DNA of 64,000 nt, taken from an uncultured Chthonomonas sp. (lineage in GTDB: Bacteria; Armatimonadota; Fimbriimonadia; Fimbriimonadales; Fimbriimonadaceae). Shown here one piece after another: positions 15,920 to 58,497 of the stretch; positions within the stretch are counted from its first letter, which is position 1; the number at the start of each line of letters is the position of its first letter. Position numbers and translations under genes: made by a program. The notes under the pieces are model-generated. The model was not told where the DNA came from. It did not search any database and saw only the letters and a list, made by a program, of their open reading frames with translations. The stretch covers positions 3,146-67,145 of the forward strand of contig CAZBXR010000002.1 in NCBI GenBank assembly GCA_964496145.1. The letters are read 5' to 3'.

Positions 15920-16591
15920 ATGACAATGAACAAATTCTCTGCTCTCGTCGGAATCGTTTTCCTTGCCAGTATCTCCTCGGCTCAAATCGTGCGGTACGAC
16001 AACACGACCACCGCATTCACTGCCGCCGTAGCAAGCAATAATCTGAATGAAGTCTGGGGAGACATGCTCACGCTCTCCGGTCCCGGCCTGCTGAGCAAAC
16101 ACACCTTTGGAATTTGGAATTCTGCGCAAAGCGGGAATACTGGAAACATCGTCGCGGGAACCTTTACGATCAAGTTTTATGACAACACGGTCCCGTTTGT
16201 GTCGGGTCCCATCACGAATCCCCTACTGGGATCTTACACATTACCGGTGAATTTTGGCTCCACTCCGGTGTTGCCAGGGTCATTCCAACTCGTGACGGCC
16301 ACGGGACTCGCCTCGCTCAACATCAATCTCCCCACCAACATCTTGATCACTCAAAGCTTTCAGCAGACCGTTGGATCAAGCATCCGGTATGGGGTGGCGA
16401 GCGGCTCGAATCCCACGACTGGATCAAGCAACAACGCGTTTTTAACAACGCTTAGCCTGAACGGGTTCATCAGCCAGTCGGGAAACTCGGGGAACCTCTA
16501 CTACAAGGTAGAAGTTGTCCCAGAGCCGACTTCGTTGGCGGCTCTAGCACTGGGTGGTTTATGGGTTGCAAGACGAAAGCGGAACCGTTAG
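15920..16591 (+). CDS. PEP-CTERM sorting-domain secreted protein
   Basis: It has a signal peptide and the C-terminus reads [24 protein letters not shown]. Confidence 0.8.
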
Positions 16592-18267
16592 TGAGTGACC
16601 GCGCCTAGGTGGGCAGAAGAGACTGTTTTGGCGTAACGCCTGAGCGCACCTCCCGGGGCCACCACCTCGGGAGGCGTCCAGTTCGCTTTTCGGCGGAGAA
16701 GTTCGGCGGGGTCGATCTGAAAATCAAGACGGAATGACTCGGCATCGACCGTGATTTGATCCCCATCTTCGACGAAGGCAATAGGACCCCCGTCCACCGC
16801 TTCGGGGCACACGTGCCCCACCATCAGACCTTTCGTCGCGCCGCTAAACCGGCCGTCTGTGAGTAGAGCCACGGAATCGCCCAGACCTTGACCCACGAGA
16901 GCGGCGGTGACTCCGAGCATTTCGCGCATCCCGGGCCCTCCCTTGGGCCCTTCGTAGCGAATGACGAGTACCTCGCCTTGTTGAATGGACTTCGCTTGGA
17001 CAGCCGCCATTGCTTCTTCTTCAGAATCAAAAACCCGGGCAGGACCCGTGTGAGCGAGCTTTTTCACCCCTGCCGTTTTCACGACTCCACCATTTGGTGC
17101 AAGATTGCCGTAAACCGCGACCAACCCTCCGGTTGGGTGCAACGGCTGGTCGACGCCTCGGACCACCTGACCGAGAGGCGGCATGGGAACATCCGCCAAG
17201 CACTCCGCCATCGTCTTGCCCGTGACCGTAAGGCAGTCTCCGTGCAGCAGGCCAGCCTCCACGAGAACCTTGAGCACCGCAGGCACGCCCCCGGCGGCGT
17301 GGAGATCAGTCATCACATATTGACCGCCTGGTCGTAGATCTCCGATAAGCGGCGTGTCTTGACTGATCGCGTGAATCTCTTCCAAGGTGATCGAGAGACC
17401 CAACTCGTGGGCGATCGCCGGCAGGTGGAGCGCAATGTTCGTGCTTCCCCCGGTGGCAACCGCCACGCGCACCGCGTTCTCCAACGAACGCCTCGTGATA
17501 ATCTGAGAAGGCCGAATTCCAGTTCGAACGGCATGGAGAACCGCCCGACTAACCATTTGGTGCACAGAGCTTCGCTCGCCCGAATCGTCCTCCGCCGGAG
17601 GGCTGGAGGACCCCGGAACGGCCATGCCCAGCGCCTCGGCGACACACGCCATCGTGTTCGCCGTGTACTGACCTCCGCAGGCTCCCGCTCCCGGGCAAAC
17701 CGCGCACTCGACAGCCTTCAGTTCGTCGGCATCGATCCGACCTGCTGAATAGGCCCCCGCCGCCTCGAATGCGTCTTGGATCGTCACGTCTTTGTCCCGA
17801 TGCCGCCCCGGCTTGATCGTGCCCCCGTACAGAAACACGCTAGGAACGTCCAGCCGCGCCATCGCCATGAGCATTCCGGGGAGACTCTTGTCGCACCCGG
17901 CGATCCCCACCAGCGCGTCATAGCAGTGAGCTCTCATCATGAGCTCGACCGAATCCGCGATCACCTCCCGGCTCACGAGAGAGGCTTTCATTCCCTCGTG
18001 ACCCATGGCGATGCCGTCGCTGACGCTGATCGTGTTGAACCGGCGGGCCGTGCCCCCGTCCTGCATCACGAGTTCAGCGATTCGCGCCGCCTGCGTGTCG
18101 AGGTTCACGTTGCAAGGAGTTGCCTCGCTCCAAACACTCGCCACCCCCACCCAGGGCTGGGCCATGTGCTGGTCTCCCAGCCCCATGGCGCGCAGCATGG
18201 CCCGGTTGGCCGTTTTATCAACCCCTTCCGTGATCGTCCGCGATTTGTGTCTGGGGTCCCACGTCAT
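16588..18267 (-). CDS. ilvD: dihydroxy-acid dehydratase
   Basis: This is a full-length 559-aa IlvD-like sequence with [11 protein letters not shown] and [11 protein letters not shown]. Confidence 0.95.
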
Positions 18268-19271
18268 ACAGGGACCTGCTTGGATTTCAGGAACGGCATC
18301 ATGCCGCGTAACTCCCGGCCAACGCCCTCGATCGGGTGTTTGCCCTCGTCCTCGCGGATGGAGGTCATTTCAGGGCGTCCTCTTTCCACCTCGCGAACCC
18401 AGCGCTCGGCGAAGGCCCCCGACTGAATATCTTTAAGAAGATCGCGCATGGCCTCTCGCGATTCGGCGTTGATCACGCGCTTCCCGGCCACGTAGTCGCC
18501 CCACTCGGCGGTATCGCTGATGCTGTATCGCATGTAGCTGAGGCCGCCTTCATATAATAGGTCTACGATGAGTTTCATCTCGTGGAGACATTCAAAATAG
18601 GCTGCCTCCGGTTGATACCCGGCCTCTGTGAGAGTCTCAAATCCAGCCTTGATCAGTTCCGTAAGGCCGCCGCAGAGAACAGCTTGCTCGCCGAACAAGT
18701 CGGTCTCGGTTTCCTCCTTGAACGTGGTCTCCAAGATTCCGGCTTGGGCGCAGCCGATGCCCCATCCATAGCTGAGAGCAATCTCTTTCGTGTCTCCGGT
18801 GGCGTCTTGGTGAACCGCGACCAGGGCAGGCATGCCATTGCCAGATTGATATTCAGCACGAAGCCGGTGCCCCGGCCCCTTGGGCGCAATCATCGCGACA
18901 TTCACGTTCGCCGGAGGCGAAATGCGATTGTAGTGAATGTTGAATCCATGGGCGAACAAGAGCGTCTGGCCATCGCGCAGATAGGGCGCGACCTCCGCCT
19001 CATAAATGTCCTTCATGGGGACATCGGGGACGCAGAACATGAGCACGTCTGCCCACTGTGTGGCCTCGGCGACACTGAGAACCTTCACGCCATGTGCCTG
19101 CGCTTTCATGCGCGAATTGGAGTTTTCGTGGAGCCCCACGGCGACGGTGCCGCCGCTCTCTTGTAGGTTCAGCGCGTGGGCATGCCCCTGACTGCCGAAT
19201 CCGAGAATCGCGACCTTTTTGCCTTTAATCAGGTCCGGCTGAGTTTGATTGGTGTAGTAAATCGTTGCCAT
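18264..19271 (-). CDS. ilvC: ketol-acid reductoisomerase
   Basis: It contains the [13 protein letters not shown] Rossmann motif, is 335 aa long, and has a 4-nt overlap with ilvD. Confidence 0.95.
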
Positions 19272-19288
19272 GATGTTAAAAATCTCCG

Positions 19289-19771
19289 TTATTTCACTCG
19301 GATGGCAACGAGGCCACTCCGAACAAGTTGTCGAATCCCGTAGGGGGAAAGGAGGGAAGCGAGGTGGTCGATCTTGGTCGGTTCGTCGGCCACCTGAAGA
19401 GTCACCGCGTGGTGCTCGAGGTGAACGATGCTACAACCCAACGTTTGGGCGATATCGAGGACCGCGCGACGCGTGCCTTCTTCAATCGCGACCTCAAACA
19501 GCGCCAACTCGCGTTGCACGCTTTCTTGCTGTTGCAAGTCGTCGACCTCGACAACGTCGACCTGCTTTTCAAGTTGCCGAACGCATTGGCGAAGGACGAG
19601 GTCATCTCCCTCGACAAGCAACGTCACGCGAGAAAAACCTTCCTGTTCGCAATCGCCCGCGTTGATGCTCGCGATATTGAACATTCGGCGGCGGAAGAGG
19701 CTCGTCAGCCGGTTCATCGTGCCGGGCTCGTTGTGAACCACGGCGGTGATCGTGTGGAGCGTGGTGCTCAT
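19289..19771 (-). CDS. ilvN: acetolactate synthase small (regulatory) subunit
   Basis: This is a 160-aa ACT-domain protein whose start overlaps the stop of the large-subunit gene ilvB by 4 nt. Confidence 0.9.
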
Positions 19772-21486
19772 CGTGAAACCTCCTGAGTTTTCGGAGCCGC
19801 TGGGTCCAGCAGCACATTGTCGTTCGAGGCCCCCGCCGCGACCATCGGATACACGTTGTCTTCCATCAACACCTTGAATTCGCAGAGCACGACACCTTTC
19901 GTTTCGCGTGCTTTTTGCATCATCTCGGTGAGGTGGCTAGCATCGTCGCACGAGAAATACGCGACCTCGTAGGCTTCTGCCAGCTTCTCGTAGTTCGGAT
20001 TGCCCATCGCCACATGGCTGTGCCGATTTTCATAAAAGAGCTCTTGCCATTGCCGCACCATGCCCAAGAATCCGTTGTTGATCAAGCAGATTCTTACGTT
20101 GATGTTGTTTTCGACCGCTGTGATCAGCTCTTGCAGGGTCATTTGGAACCCGCCATCGCCCACCACGGCCCAGACCTCCTTCTCGGGGTGCGCGAATGCC
20201 GCTCCCATGGCTGAGGGGAAGCCAAAACCCATGGTGCCTAGCCCCCCGCTACTGACCCATTGGAAGGGTCGGCGGTACTTATACAGTTGGGCGGCCCACA
20301 TTTGGTGTTGCCCCACGTCGGTGCAGATAATCGCATCCGAATCTGTCTGTCGGTTCAATTCGGCGATGACCTGCCGGGCATACAGTTTTCCAGGTTCGGA
20401 GGGGGGCACAAAGATCGGATGTTGGGAGCGCCAGTTGTCCAAGATCTCCCACCACTCGGGATGCGTTGCCGGGGCGGCGGCTGAGACGAAAGCGGGAAGG
20501 CTCTCAGACAAGTCTCCGGGGAGAATGACTTCGGTTTCGACGACCTTTGAGAACTCGCTTCGGTCGATATCGAAGTGGATGATCTTGGCATGGGGGGCAA
20601 ACCCGTTCACCTTGCCTGTCAAACGATCATCCCAGCGCATGCCGATTCCGATGACGAGATCGGCGTGCTGGACCGCCATGGTGGAAGTGTATTCCCCGTG
20701 CATTCCCATCATGCCAAGCGATCGCTTGTCCATTCGGTCGAGGTTTCCGAGACCCAGCATGGTGCTGATCACGGGAAGATCGCACTTTTCGGCAAGCTCC
20801 GCGAGGGCCGCTGAGGTATCCGACCAGAGGACGCCCGCGCCCGCAATGACGACCGGTTTCCGTGATTCGGCGAGGAGTTTGACGGCTCTTTCGATTTGCG
20901 CATAGTTGACCGGCTCAGAGGGTCGATACCCGGCCCGCTCCACTTTCTCAGGGAAATCCCGGGTCGTGGCGGCGATAAACACATCTTTTGGGACATCGAC
21001 CAACACGGGCCCTTTACGCCCTGTGTTGGCGAGATAGAACGCCTCGGCCATGACGTGGGGCAGCTCATCGACATGCCGCACGAGATAATTGTGCTTCGTG
21101 ATGGGGATGGTGATTCCTTGGATGTCGGTCTCTTGAAAGGCATCGGTGCCGATGGCCCACGAGTTGACGTTGCCAGTGAGGACCACCATGGGGATGCTGT
21201 CCATCATGGCGGTGGCGATGCCCGTGACAAGGTTGGTCGCGCCGGGGCCGCTTGTGGCGAGACACACGCCAACTTCTCCGGTCGAGCGAGCATAGCCATC
21301 GGCCATGTGGGCCGCGCACTGCTCGTGGCGCACGAGGACGTGATGGACCTCGGGCCAGTTCAACATTTCGTCGTAAAGGGGGAGGACGACACCTCCCGGG
21401 TATCCGAAGATCGTTCGAATTCCATGATTGACCAGGGCCTGCATGATAATTTGGGCGCCGGTACGTTGCTTTGGTTCTTCACTCAT
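19768..21486 (-). CDS. ilvB: acetolactate synthase large subunit
   Basis: It is 572 aa long with the ThDP motif VVGDGGFQM...INNG. Confidence 0.95.
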   Translation of the reverse strand: MSEEPKQRTGAQIIMQALVNHGIRTIFGYPGGVVLPLYDEMLNWPEVHHVLVRHEQCAAHMADGYARSTGEVGVCLATSGPGATNLVTGIATAMMDSIPMVVLTGNVNSWAIGTDAFQETDIQGITIPITKHNYLVRHVDELPHVMAEAFYLANTGRKGPVLVDVPKDVFIAATTRDFPEKVERAGYRPSEPVNYAQIERAVKLLAESRKPVVIAGAGVLWSDTSAALAELAEKCDLPVISTMLGLGNLDRMDKRSLGMMGMHGEYTSTMAVQHADLVIGIGMRWDDRLTGKVNGFAPHAKIIHFDIDRSEFSKVVETEVILPGDLSESLPAFVSAAAPATHPEWWEILDNWRSQHPIFVPPSEPGKLYARQVIAELNRQTDSDAIICTDVGQHQMWAAQLYKYRRPFQWVSSGGLGTMGFGFPSAMGAAFAHPEKEVWAVVGDGGFQMTLQELITAVENNINVRICLINNGFLGMVRQWQELFYENRHSHVAMGNPNYEKLAEAYEVAYFSCDDASHLTEMMQKARETKGVVLCEFKVLMEDNVYPMVAAGASNDNVLLDPAAPKTQEVSR

Positions 21487-21530
21487 AGGTTTGGTTCCTG
21501 TTTGCTGCCCGTGGCGCCGTTGCCTCTGGC

Positions 21531-21564
21531 AAAAAAGAAACCCTTCCTGGCTTTCCAGGAAGGG
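21531..21564 (-). terminator. attenuator terminator in the ilvB leader
   Basis: The minus strand reads CCCTTCCTGG-AAAG-CCAGGAAGGG, a perfect 10-bp stem, followed by TTTCTTTTTT. It lies 44 nt upstream of the ilvB ATG. Confidence 0.8.
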
Positions 21565-21595
21565 CTCTCAAGTTTCTTTGTTGTGCGCTTCCTGG

Positions 21596-21706
21596 TTACG
21601 TTCTTGTAAGAATAAGGACGACGACGAGAAGGAGACCGACGACAACAAGACCAAGGCCCGGAAGGACTCGGCTGTTTTCGTTCAGTTCGTTCGTCAGAAA
21701 GCTCAC
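21596..21706 (-). CDS. candidate ilv leader peptide (36 codons, Leu/Val/Ile-rich)
   Basis: The ORF runs from GTG to TAA and encodes VSFLTNELNENSRVLPGLGLVVVGLLLVVVLILTRT. Its stop abuts a segment that can pair with the terminator 5' arm. No ATG or clear SD is present. Confidence 0.55.
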   Translation of the reverse strand: MSFLTNELNENSRVLPGLGLVVVGLLLVVVLILTRT

Positions 21707-21815
21707 GACGCTTTTATCTTACTACACTTTTCGCTAGGTCAGGAGGCGAGTCTTGGCCCAGTCTGTAAAAAAGTCGTCGTTTCAGGGGTGCGGGTGGTAA
21801 CATGGCGGCCAAGCC

Positions 21816-22217
21816 ATGAGAAAAGAGTCTTTGATCAATTTCGTGCTCCTAGGAGGGTTCCTCATGATGCTCCTTGAGATTCGAGTCATGCACCTCTACG
21901 AACTCAAAGACCATTGGCAGACATGGATTCCGCTCTTCTATTGCGTGCTCGCAATGGCGGCATGTTTCATGTCGGGATCGAAAAATGTGAAGTTGGCGCG
22001 CGCCGCCGTCTGGATATTTGCCCTCGGATTGTTGGTCGGTCCTCTGGGTCTCTATTTCCATCTCGACGGAAGCCTAAAACCGTTGCAACCGCTTTTTGGC
22101 ATGGGCGAACCCGATGGAGGCCCCCCGCCGTTGGCCCCTCTGGGGCTTGCTGGTCTCGCGGCAATCGGCCTCATCAACGGCTGGCCGAAGAAGGGTGAAG
22201 AGTTAGCTCGTGCTTAA
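21816..22217 (+). CDS. hypothetical membrane protein (4 hydrophobic segments)
   Basis: This 133-aa ORF overlaps the next gene by 8 nt. Confidence 0.55.
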   Translation: MRKESLINFVLLGGFLMMLLEIRVMHLYELKDHWQTWIPLFYCVLAMAACFMSGSKNVKLARAAVWIFALGLLVGPLGLYFHLDGSLKPLQPLFGMGEPDGGPPPLAPLGLAGLAAIGLINGWPKKGEELARA

Positions 22218-22740
22218 GTATCAATTCATCCGGAAAGCCCACCGATGGGTGGGGCTGTTGTCGAGCCTTTTCCTCATTGTCATTTCCGCCACGGGATTCT
22301 TGCTCGCGATCAAGGGAAACGTCGCTTGGATGCGACCCCCCGTCGTGGAGACCTTCCCGACCGAGAGCTTTTTGCAGGTAGTCGGGCCAGGGGTGGCCAT
22401 GGATGCGGCTTTTGCGAAGAACCTCCCCGAACTGCAGACCCCTTCGGATGTCGATCGAGTGGACTATCGCCCCAAGGACAACGTGTTCAAGGTGCTGAGC
22501 AAAAAGGGGTACTGGGAGGTGCAGGTGGACGGGACCTCAGGCCGCGTGCTCCAAGTGGCAAAGCGAAATGATCAGCTCACCGAGGACATCCACGACATGT
22601 CGTTCTTTGCGGAGTTCACGCACAAATGGGTCTTGCCGGTCGTGGCCGCCTCGCTCTTTCTCCTCGGCGTGAGCGGAATCGTGATCTTCCTCAATCCTGT
22701 TTTCCGGCGGCGCGCCCACCGGAAAAACTCAGGGAATTGA
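22210..22740 (+). CDS. PepSY-associated transmembrane-helix / PepSY-like protein
   Basis: The N-terminus IRKAHRWVGLLSSLFLIVISATGFLLAI is typical of PepSY_TM. There is also a C-terminal transmembrane segment. Confidence 0.65.
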   Translation: MLKYQFIRKAHRWVGLLSSLFLIVISATGFLLAIKGNVAWMRPPVVETFPTESFLQVVGPGVAMDAAFAKNLPELQTPSDVDRVDYRPKDNVFKVLSKKGYWEVQVDGTSGRVLQVAKRNDQLTEDIHDMSFFAEFTHKWVLPVVAASLFLLGVSGIVIFLNPVFRRRAHRKNSGN

Positions 22741-22870: not shown

Positions 22871-23839
22871 TTACCGACGTCGCTTGCGAAGGAACAATCC
22901 AAGGCCGCTGGCCAAGGCGAGCATAGTTCCTGGCTCGGGGGCCACTACAATGTCGAAGTCCAGTGCCGTGGCTGTGGGAGAATTCCCAAGGCTTACGGAA
23001 GGATAGAACGAACGGCTCGCCTCATCCCAAAAGATGAGGTCGTGGTTCGCAGAGGCGCTGGTGTCCCACAAATTCATGTATCCCGTGTGGGTCCATGCGC
23101 CCCCAATGGTGCCGCTCGTAGAGAAGGGGAAAGTCCACGGGGCCGATATCGAAGTTGACCCGACACCCCCTGCGGTGTAGACCCTGCTTGGTCTGCTGAA
23201 CTCATCCTGAGCGATCATCTTGTTCCCGAGGAGATCAAGATTGAAGAATGGAGACCCGGAGGCCGTTGTAAGGGTATCTACCAGCACAGGTGACAACCCC
23301 GAAGAATTCCAGCGATAGAGTCGATTGCCAAGACTGGTGGTGGTGTTTTGAACCAGACCGTAGAAATCGCCATTGGGCGCCTGGACACCGTCGTAAAACG
23401 TCTGGAGTGTTCCGCTTGGAGCGGCGAATGCCCCTATGAACGCCCCGTTCGACGTCCATCGGCCAATCTCGTTTGAACCACCGAACGAGCCGGAAAGGAT
23501 GTAGTTTCCGCTGTTATCGAACGAGATGTTCGTATAATTTGAGGGCGCGGCAAAGTTCACGGAGCGAAGTAGCGAGCCTGTATTGTAATTGAATACCGAA
23601 ATGCGACTTCCTGACGTGGAACTGTAACTCAGTACGTGCGCGGTGCCGTCACTTTGATTGATGGCAAGCTTTCTGGCACCGGTGATTCTTCCCGTTCCAA
23701 ACTTTCCAAGATACGCTGCTGTCTCAACGCCGTATCGGTAGACCTCGGTCGCGGTCAAAACCAGACCCAACTCAAAACTTGCAAAAGATGCTGATGGAAG
23801 CGCCAGCGCAGCCAGCAACACAAGATGTCCTCTTCTCAT
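22871..23839 (-). CDS. PEP-CTERM sorting-domain secreted protein
   Basis: The start was chosen at MRRGHLVLLAALALPSASFA. The C-terminus reads VAPEPGTMLALASGLGLFLRKRRR. Confidence 0.8.
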   Translation of the reverse strand: MRRGHLVLLAALALPSASFASFELGLVLTATEVYRYGVETAAYLGKFGTGRITGARKLAINQSDGTAHVLSYSSTSGSRISVFNYNTGSLLRSVNFAAPSNYTNISFDNSGNYILSGSFGGSNEIGRWTSNGAFIGAFAAPSGTLQTFYDGVQAPNGDFYGLVQNTTTSLGNRLYRWNSSGLSPVLVDTLTTASGSPFFNLDLLGNKMIAQDEFSRPSRVYTAGGVGSTSISAPWTFPFSTSGTIGGAWTHTGYMNLWDTSASANHDLIFWDEASRSFYPSVSLGNSPTATALDFDIVVAPEPGTMLALASGLGLFLRKRRR

Positions 23840-23871
23840 GGCTGTATGATACAGCAACATCCCCGAATTTC

Positions 23872-46043: not shown

Positions 46044-46066
46044 GTTCGTCGTCGAATCATAAGGGA

Positions 46067-46103
46067 AAGCCCCTCCGTATCGTTACAGAGGGGCTTTTTG
46101 CGT
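46067..46103 (+). terminator. rho-independent terminator shared by convergent genes
   Basis: AAAGCCCCTC-N11-GAGGGGCTTT is followed by TTGCGTTTG. Confidence 0.7.
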
Positions 46104-58431: not shown

Positions 58432-58460
58432 CGGCACGTTGATTGCTCGCGAAAATCCGA

Positions 58461-58497
58461 AAAAGGTCACTCTCTTAGGAGAGTGACCTTTTTGTTT
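58461..58497. terminator. bidirectional rho-independent terminator
   Basis: AAAAAGGTCACTCTC-TTAG-GAGAGTGACCTTTTT lies between the convergent dockerin-tail gene and motB. Confidence 0.85.

Follow-up and report, generated by a model that had tools for sequence, protein, structure and literature searches.

Known attenuators of branched-chain amino acid operons

The leaders of the Escherichia coli operons for branched-chain amino acids (BCAA), ilvBN (ivbL), ilvGMEDA (ilvL) and leu (leuL), comprise about 28-32 codons with runs of Val, Leu and Ile codons and are followed by terminator and antiterminator structures that are mutually exclusive. They furthermore have a 5' untranslated region (5' UTR) with a Shine-Dalgarno sequence and a defined 1:2 protector or pause hairpin overlapping the regulatory codons, and the leu leader uses rare Leu codons. 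The element considered here precedes the ilvBNCD operon on the minus strand of a 64,000-nucleotide (nt) stretch of contig CAZBXR010000002.1 from an uncultured Chthonomonas sp. (the window, by which we mean the whole stretch analysed), and it is very probably a leader-peptide attenuator of well-known kind, working like the enterobacterial ilvBN, ilvGMEDA and leu attenuators. It departs from the E. coli leaders in that its open reading frame (ORF) appears to be leaderless and in that a protector which overlaps the BCAA run finds no support, and neither the Rfam Leu_leader model nor the models related to it match the leader of the window.

In its leaderless form the attenuator of the window would work like that of Corynebacterium glutamicum ilvBNC (IlvL; the 'ilvB-II motif'), which likewise combines a BCAA-rich leader ORF with a terminator and a competing antiterminator. 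According to PMC11857589, which cites Morbach 2000, the C. glutamicum leader has no ribosome-binding site, its transcription start site lies 1 nt from the start codon and it responds to BCAA in experiments, and it should also be mentioned that representatives of the ilvB-II motif use AUG, GUG and UUG starts (PMC11857589; PMC10272879). However, the leader peptides of Corynebacterium have 15-17 amino acids as opposed to 36 in the window, the three-hairpin model for Corynebacterium puts the ORF in hairpin H1 whereas the antiterminator strand of the window sits just past the stop codon, and there is no sequence similarity between the two leaders, which belong to different phyla, nor does any Rfam model match that of the window.

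Leaderless leader peptides are found in further bacteria. In Deinococcus deserti, 14 of them have been predicted on transcripts beginning with 5'-AUG or GUG, backed by RNA-seq (PMC4007540), and mycobacteria are reported to have leaderless polycysteine attenuators consisting of upstream ORFs (uORFs) (bioRxiv 10.1101/834739). Both groups have a short regulatory ORF at or 1 nt from the 5' end with an AUG or GUG start, as is proposed for the window, and the short ORFs precede amino-acid biosynthesis or tRNA-synthetase genes (PMC4007540; bioRxiv 10.1101/834739). They differ from the window in phylum and in the amino acids concerned, and the start assumed for the window comes from promoter spacing. 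Attenuation by uORFs is common for ilvB, the ilvB-OMG and other ilvB motifs being of the uORF type (PMC10272879), and our own survey of distant loci agrees with this, since a BCAA-run ORF followed within 20-45 nt by a terminator was found upstream of ilvB in 25 of 155 loci and in 3 on the reverse strand. Such leaders occur in Chloroflexi (L007, L030, L048 and L106), in Myxococcota-like loci (L043 and L070) and in Acidobacteria-like loci (L037, L041, L060, L062, L110, L117, L122, L143 and L159), many of the Acidobacteria-like ones ending in ..GPA at the stop codon. In L030, L106 and L007 of the Chloroflexi the copy of the terminator 3' arm is located within the last codons (..PVGEA and stop), whereas the copy in the window lies past the stop, and no sequence or covariance-model similarity to the window is detectable for the uORF-type ilvB motifs.

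The leader of the ilvBNCD operon

On the minus strand the leader reads TAAGAT-aaaagcgtc-GTG AGC TTT CTG ... CTT ATT CTT ACA AGA ACG TAA-CCAGGAAG-cgcacaacaaagaaacttgagag-CCCTTCCTGG-AAAG-CCAGGAAGGG-TTTCTTTTTT, and its parts are collected in Table 1. Residues 18-33 of the leader peptide consist of 14 Leu, Val or Ile and two Gly, and the whole peptide contains 10 Leu, 7 Val and 1 Ile, so that BCAA make up 18 of its 36 residues. The GTG is the sole in-frame start after the upstream stop codon, and the ORF ends 109 nt before the ATG of ilvB, both being on the same strand. The first 8 nt of segment B, CCAGGAAG, are identical to the start of the terminator 3' arm, and after a further 23 nt comes the terminator itself, CCCTTCCTGG-AAAG-CCAGGAAGGG and then TTTCTTTTTT, the stem of which is lengthened to 13 pairs by the terminator scan (21567-21538; predicted free energy, dG, -22.4 kcal/mol). 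The intrinsic terminator as a whole spans 21567-21531, and 44 nt separate its end from ilvB. When the RNA of the window is folded without the 3' arm, from the stop codon to the terminator loop, B and C form a helix with a dG of -15.6 kcal/mol, and since segment C is common to both, the B:C and C:D helices are mutually exclusive. The 25 nt after the stop codon pair with the 5' arm at -16.5 kcal/mol, a value equalled by 0.7% of 25-nt windows drawn at random from that region (p = 0.007), and the whole leader folds with a z of -2.74 relative to dinucleotide shuffles.

The combination goes beyond what chance would be expected to produce, and it is furthermore singular within the 64 kb. Among 84 terminator-like hairpins with a dG <= -12 kcal/mol one has a BCAA-rich ORF end upstream, the last 20 residues of the upstream ORF holding 14 BCAA in the leader and 8 in the next best of the 84, and a scan of the whole window gave no second amino-acid-rich leader with a terminator. 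The four genes ilvB, ilvN, ilvC and ilvD all exceed their NCBIfam cut-offs, the neighbouring gene at 21816-22217 on the plus strand is divergent from ilvB, and because the intergenic region is divergent the hairpin terminates no other gene. A scan of the G+C-rich gap between terminator and ilvB found no promoter-like site. An initial annotation of this DNA had given the coordinates of the ORF, the peptide, the run of 14 BCAA among 16 residues, the segment after the stop, the hairpin and the T-tract, and had placed ilvBNCD downstream; all of these sequence statements are correct, and the comparison of fold energies that it had proposed yields the -22.4 (terminator) and -15.6 kcal/mol (antiterminator) given above.

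Table 1. Coordinates of the ilvBNCD leader and operon in the window
Feature	Position	Strand	Details
-10-like hexamer TAAGAT	21716..21721	-	ends 9 nt before GTG; -35 region TCCTGA, poor
Leader ORF	21596..21706	-	GTG start 21706-21704; 36 codons; TAA stop 21598-21596; peptide VSFLTNELNENSRVLPGLGLVVVGLLLVVVLILTRT
Tentative segment A, GCTTTCTG (GCUUUCUG in RNA pairing)	21695..21702	-	nt 5-12 of presumed transcript; complementary to CAGGAAGC in B
Regulatory codon run, codons 18-33	21608..21655	-	Leu/Val/Ile 14/16; proposed ribosome stall zone
Segment B, CCAGGAAGCGC	21585..21595	-	antiterminator 5' strand; core CCAGGAAG at 21595-21588; begins at first base past stop
Segment C, GAGCCCTTCCTGG	21555..21567	-	terminator 5' arm, common to antiterminator
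Terminator loop AAAG	21551..21554	-	terminator scan
Segment D, CCAGGAAGGGTTT	21538..21550	-	terminator 3' arm
T-tract TTTCTTTTTT	21531..21540	-	intrinsic terminator; first three T also lengthen stem
Operon ilvB-ilvN-ilvC-ilvD	16588..21486	-	ilvB 19768-21486, ATG 21486-21484; Shine-Dalgarno-like AGGAA 21499-21495

Conservation and covariation in relatives

The leader was compared in 13 sequences, namely the window and the ilvB upstream regions of 12 distinct relatives with IlvB 63-76% identical. Close relatives were found by IlvB protein search and contig look-ups, while searches of genome and metagenome contigs gave L001 (63%) and otherwise matches of <= 52%. The IlvB search returned one cluster that is 99% identical to the window and includes a 1.4-Mb JGI contig, as well as about 120 relatives at 63-76%; IlvB of the cultured Fimbriimonas ginsengisoli is 68% identical to that of the window. 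On the basis of IlvB the window falls in Armatimonadota, near Fimbriimonadaceae, and the relatives are Fimbriimonadia-like Armatimonadota.

The five-part layout of -10-like hexamer, ORF, stop, 3'-arm copy and terminator is kept in all 12 relatives. Their leader ORFs have 32-43 codons, most of them starting with ATG, with Leu, Val and Ile making up 34-51% of the residues and the run located in the 3' half, and the last BCAA codon precedes the stop by 1-4 codons across the 13 sequences (3 codons in the window). The 3'-arm copy (consensus CCGGGAAG) is found 0-11 nt past the stop, compared to 0 nt in the window, and 18-27 nt beyond it follows the terminator, GCCTTCCCGG-loop-CCGGGAAGGC with a T-tract. 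The leader peptides of the 13 sequences are alike in composition and length and little in sequence. The N-terminus of the L175 leader (MSLFVAQNSLNE...) does resemble that of the window (VSFLTNELNE...), which argues for the GTG as the true leader start, and the L175 ORF as called by the gene finder ends ACG TAA CCGGGAAG, like the window. An ORF of L175 that reads through segment B was rejected as being in the wrong frame, the gene-finder ORF stopping before segment B. Gene callers placed a short gene at the leader position in L164, L175 and L176, listed in each case as a hypothetical protein. In Fimbriimonas ginsengisoli Gsoil 348 the leader is found at 1207-1311 of L166 (about CP007139.1:208943-209047) with a GTG start, 34 codons, a TAA stop and ACCTGGGAAG followed by the terminator, and the existing annotation has no gene at this position.

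The B:C antiterminator helix is predicted in all 13 RNA folds from stop to loop, with a dG of -13.6 to -18.6 kcal/mol, and the terminators of the 13 sequences range from -21 to -32 kcal/mol. Covariation was assessed on an alignment of curated blocks (A2) with 12 nt each of B, C and D, spacer and loop being removed; it replaced a MAFFT alignment from stop to terminator (A1), which misplaced segment B in L166, L167 and L164. In A2 the antiterminator has 86% of its cells paired and 7 of its 10 pairs changed on both sides, which none of 500 shuffles equalled, and pairing falls to 31-62% when the register is slid. The terminator likewise has 94% of its cells paired and 8 of 12 pairs changed on both sides, again with 0 of 500 shuffles equal. 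Changes are indeed compensated in all three segments at once: the window has CCAGGAAG / CTTCCTGG / CCAGGAAG where L001 has CCGGGAAG / CTTCCCGG / CCGGGAAG, L169 has GGGAAGACC / GGTCTTCCC / GGGAAGACC, and in L164 and L167 one extra C in segment C is matched by an extra G in B and another in D. Furthermore, in L169 and L176 segment B carries a U (CUGGG vs CCGGG) that pairs with an A of the terminator loop, directly 3' of the stem, and since this pair serves the antiterminator only, segment B is selected to pair with C and is not a mere duplicate of D.

These results bear directly on the proposals of the initial annotation. The alignment of relatives that it had suggested recovers the BCAA mini-ORF in 12 of 12 together with compensatory changes across the three segments, and the notion that the segment after the stop competes for the 5' arm as an antiterminator is upheld by the B:C helix predicted throughout and by covariation that includes pairs unused by the terminator. 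The compact three-segment attenuation model, finally, holds in all 13 sequences, and its geometry fits the logic of ribosome position.

Two observations concern the region downstream of the leader in relatives. The matched or called ilvB starts of L171 (~1471) and L001 (~1300) are probably too far downstream; an ATG is available upstream in both, which is in frame and gives MNQRSGAEIVM in L171 and is preceded by AAGGAG in L001. Moreover, a small hairpin of the form CGAC-N6-GUCG, with a loop close to AAnGnC, is found between terminator and ilvB Shine-Dalgarno sequence in most relatives, at 1311-1328 of L001 (GCCGAC-AAGGTC-GTCGGC) and also in L165, L166, L169, L170, L171, L173, L175 and L177, and the window has a weak counterpart at 21524-21513 on the minus strand (GGC-AACGGC-GCC). 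RNAalifold gives it a 5-bp stem with some two-sided changes, and it could provide regulation with a second input or be a site of processing.

Putative promoter and probable leaderless start

All 13 sequences have a TAnnnT hexamer whose end lies 7-10 nt ahead of the leader start, as opposed to 2% under a null of random positions or of ATG/GTG/TTG triplets, and a -35 element matching TTGACA or TTGCAA at >= 4/6 positions with a spacer of 16-18 nt is present in 10 of 13, where the null is 0.5-0.6%. Thus L164 has TTGCAA-17-TAAGAT-9-GTG, in which TAAGAT-9-GTG is the same as in the window, L167 has TTGCAA-17-TATTAT-9-TTG, L165 and L170 have TTGCAA-17-TAACCT-8-ATG, and L171 has TTGCAT-17-TATGAT-7-ATG. 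Since a sigma-70 consensus scan of 21300-22300 found no promoter, we infer the leader promoter of the window only from the conserved -10 spacing. By this spacing transcription would begin 0-3 nt ahead of the start codon, and given the fixed distance of the hexamer from the start in all 13 sequences the leader ORF is probably translated from a leaderless or near-leaderless mRNA. The initial annotation had regarded the GTG start, the lack of a Shine-Dalgarno sequence before it and the -10 box 9 nt upstream as weak points of its model; all three are valid as observations, but they rather speak for the model, the spacing of the hexamer being kept in 13 of 13, and the nearly leaderless transcript that it had considered is in agreement with the same spacing, from which the start is deduced.

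Codon usage and folding of the leader ORF

CTT, a minor Leu codon, is found at 6 of the 10 Leu positions of the window leader, compared to 15% in ilvBNCD. The leader ORFs of the window, L001 and L164-L177 together have CTT at 58 of 109 Leu positions where 24 would be expected from ilvB usage, and ATT, which also ends in U, is over-used likewise (42 of ~46 Ile; 17 expected). The over-use of CTT is reminiscent of the E. coli leu leader with its rare Leu codons, and non-preferred codons may sharpen the sensitivity of the leader. The CTT-rich BCAA run was also considered as a 'segment 1' selected to pair with segment B and was rejected, synonymous recoding giving pairing with B that is equal or better in 13 of 13 sequences (0 of 13 at p <= 0.05); pairing to segment B therefore does not explain the over-use of CTT and ATT. 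The ORF moreover contains a long imperfect hairpin (21618-21695 of the window, minus strand, corresponding to nt ~12-89 of the ORF), the apex of which is near codon 15. In 9 of the 13 sequences the leader ORF is more stably folded than its shuffles (z <= -1.8; window -1.82), with equivalent hairpin positions in the relatives, and the hairpin may be a pause signal for RNA polymerase.

Proposed mechanism

From the sequence comparisons we consider it very likely that the element is a ribosome-mediated leader-peptide attenuator which responds to BCAA and controls ilvBNCD. Transcription would start at most a few nt upstream of the GTG, and the 36-codon ORF would be translated in leaderless or near-leaderless fashion. 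With BCAA plentiful the ribosome should pass the Leu/Val/Ile run, reach the TAA and cover segment B, which starts at the next base; C would then pair with D to form the terminator, and transcription would end at the T-tract, 44 nt before ilvB. With BCAA scarce the ribosome would instead stall in codons 18-33, and B should stay exposed even if the stall occurs at the last BCAA codon. Free B, which is transcribed ~30 nt ahead of C, could then capture C as an antiterminator (about -16 kcal/mol), leaving D without a partner and allowing RNA polymerase to read through into ilvB. The signal sensed would thus be the supply of charged Leu, Val and Ile tRNAs. The positions of segment B, 0-11 nt past the stop, and of the last BCAA codon, 1-4 codons before it, are as this logic of ribosome position requires; the masking argument uses the usual size of the ribosome footprint, the placement of which is presumed. 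If the model is true, changing CCAGGAAG to CCACCAAG in segment B should lead to constitutive termination.

Several points weigh against this interpretation. The -35 region of the window is poor (TCCTGA), and standard spacing would leave a 5' UTR of ~3 nt before the GTG, which is not an ideal leaderless start. The starts of L001, L164, L166 and L176 were picked among alternatives by promoter spacing, which makes the spacing argument partly circular. The covariation alignment A2 was curated by hand, and the 13 sequences are kin, so the shuffle controls overstate independence. Finally, a design of three segments only should lead to read-through whenever the leader is untranslated.

Alternative explanations

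It may be asked whether the mini-ORF constitutes a separate gene that encodes a small hydrophobic (membrane) peptide and has a terminator of its own, ilvB then having its own promoter and the 3'-arm repeat being non-regulatory. The peptide does resemble a single transmembrane helix, and similar ORFs have been called as hypothetical proteins in three relatives. However, the peptide is conserved in composition and length alone, whereas the RNA pairings keep compensatory changes, and the covariation between segment B and the 5' arm extends to positions unused by the terminator. In addition the ORF is always directly upstream of ilvB and co-oriented with it, the gap between terminator and ilvB consists of only 44 G+C-rich nt devoid of a promoter-like site, and at distant loci an ORF with a BCAA run and a terminator precedes ilvB 25 times in 155 as against 3 times on the reverse strand, all of which makes a separate membrane peptide exceedingly improbable. 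T-boxes control ilvB in Bacillota, which lends some plausibility to the idea that the switch is real but set by an uncharged tRNA in T-box-like manner, by an RNA-binding protein or by a small-molecule riboswitch, with the ORF being incidental. It could furthermore be argued that ppGpp riboswitches control ilvB in some bacteria (PMC10272879) and that the small hairpin conserved past the terminator in most relatives might be a second input. Nevertheless we regard a switch of this sort as very unlikely, since neither a T-box nor a ppGpp aptamer would fit a leader of such small size and simplicity, and since the open frame, the BCAA enrichment, the length and the position of B relative to the stop are kept in 13 of 13 sequences despite nucleotide drift. 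A T-box, a riboswitch or a curated leader family can also be dismissed on the grounds that a search with all models of Rfam 15, Leu_leader and T-box included, gave nothing beyond noise in the window region (E <= 10; best 19.6 bits vs a gathering score of 54) and nothing at gathering score in the 12 relatives.

The attenuator may alternatively have a fourth segment, as in trp-like systems, with segment A at the 5' end (Table 1) serving as an anti-antiterminator in some lineages, that of the window included, by pairing with B and keeping it from C, such that the terminator would form on transcripts that are untranslated or already terminated. Several folds are in agreement with this: in the minimum free energy (MFE) fold of the full-length window leader, A:B (GCUUUCUG : CAGGAAGC) coexists with C:D, it appears in the MFE fold of the window whenever segment C is absent or held in the terminator, and in 8 of the 13 sequences the MFE fold of the RNA made ahead of C has B paired to transcript nt 1-14. 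The A:B duplex of the window has a dG of -12.2 kcal/mol (p = 0.01), the second best of 90 ORF windows, and in the window as well as in L165, L170 and L171 the duplex surpasses 99% of random windows, L173 being marginal. A CUUYYC motif is furthermore found at nt 6-13, in differing reading frames, in the window, L165, L173 and L175, and L165, L170 and L171 use the same 5' end, but paired with different 3' flanks of B. However, A:B falls short of significance in 8 of the 13 sequences, among them L175 and L001, the leaders of which are closest to the window in peptide sequence, and L165, L170 and L171 are close relatives, leaving effectively ~2 independent cases. A would moreover not itself be masked by a ribosome stalled 40-85 nt downstream, so that a second ribosome or a kinetic argument is needed, and the recoding test points to no alternative partner of B selected within the BCAA run (13/13 sequences, with 0/13 at p <= 0.05). 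Such a four-segment variant is therefore tentative and, on the whole, rather doubtful to us. The same tentative standing is given to the corollary that A:B would also bury the leaderless start and would itself be prevented by an initiating or queued ribosome at the 5' end; it has a parallel in hairpin H1 of C. glutamicum, which has been proposed as an anti-antiterminator that also blocks leaderless initiation (PMC11857589). A closed-loop switch acting at two levels and confined to leaderless leaders, in which the 5' end near the GTG pairs with B and one helix serves both as anti-antiterminator and to shut off 70S initiation, is in our opinion unlikely. If it were true, ribosome loading at the 5' end and not only stalling at BCAA codons would set termination versus read-through, and together with the small downstream hairpin it would turn the ilvB leader of Fimbriimonadia into an RNA family of its own that takes more than one input.

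Implications of the proposed three-segment attenuator

A literature search for Armatimonadetes and leader peptide found no report of such attenuation in the phylum. The three-segment attenuator proposed here would extend classical leader-peptide attenuation, in leaderless form, to Armatimonadota (class Fimbriimonadia), where no Rfam model covers the element, and leaves the understanding of attenuation itself unchanged. It marks a small ORF that annotation has missed or listed as a hypothetical protein, it supplies an architecture of promoter, start codon and terminator for a poorly studied phylum, and it suggests that leaderless translation operates in the Fimbriimonadia lineage. The 13-member alignment with its three-way compensatory changes furnishes the basis for a covariance model, and Fimbriimonas ginsengisoli is a practical organism for experiments.

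Other features of the window

Elsewhere in the window two strong hairpins, at 46066-46097 and 58460-58493, score as terminators on both strands and are candidate bidirectional terminators. Two ORFs flanking the ilv operon, at 22871-23860 (minus strand) and 15920-16591 (plus strand), end in PEP-CTERM sorting signals (NCBIfam TIGR02595), which suggests the presence of an exosortase system in the genome.

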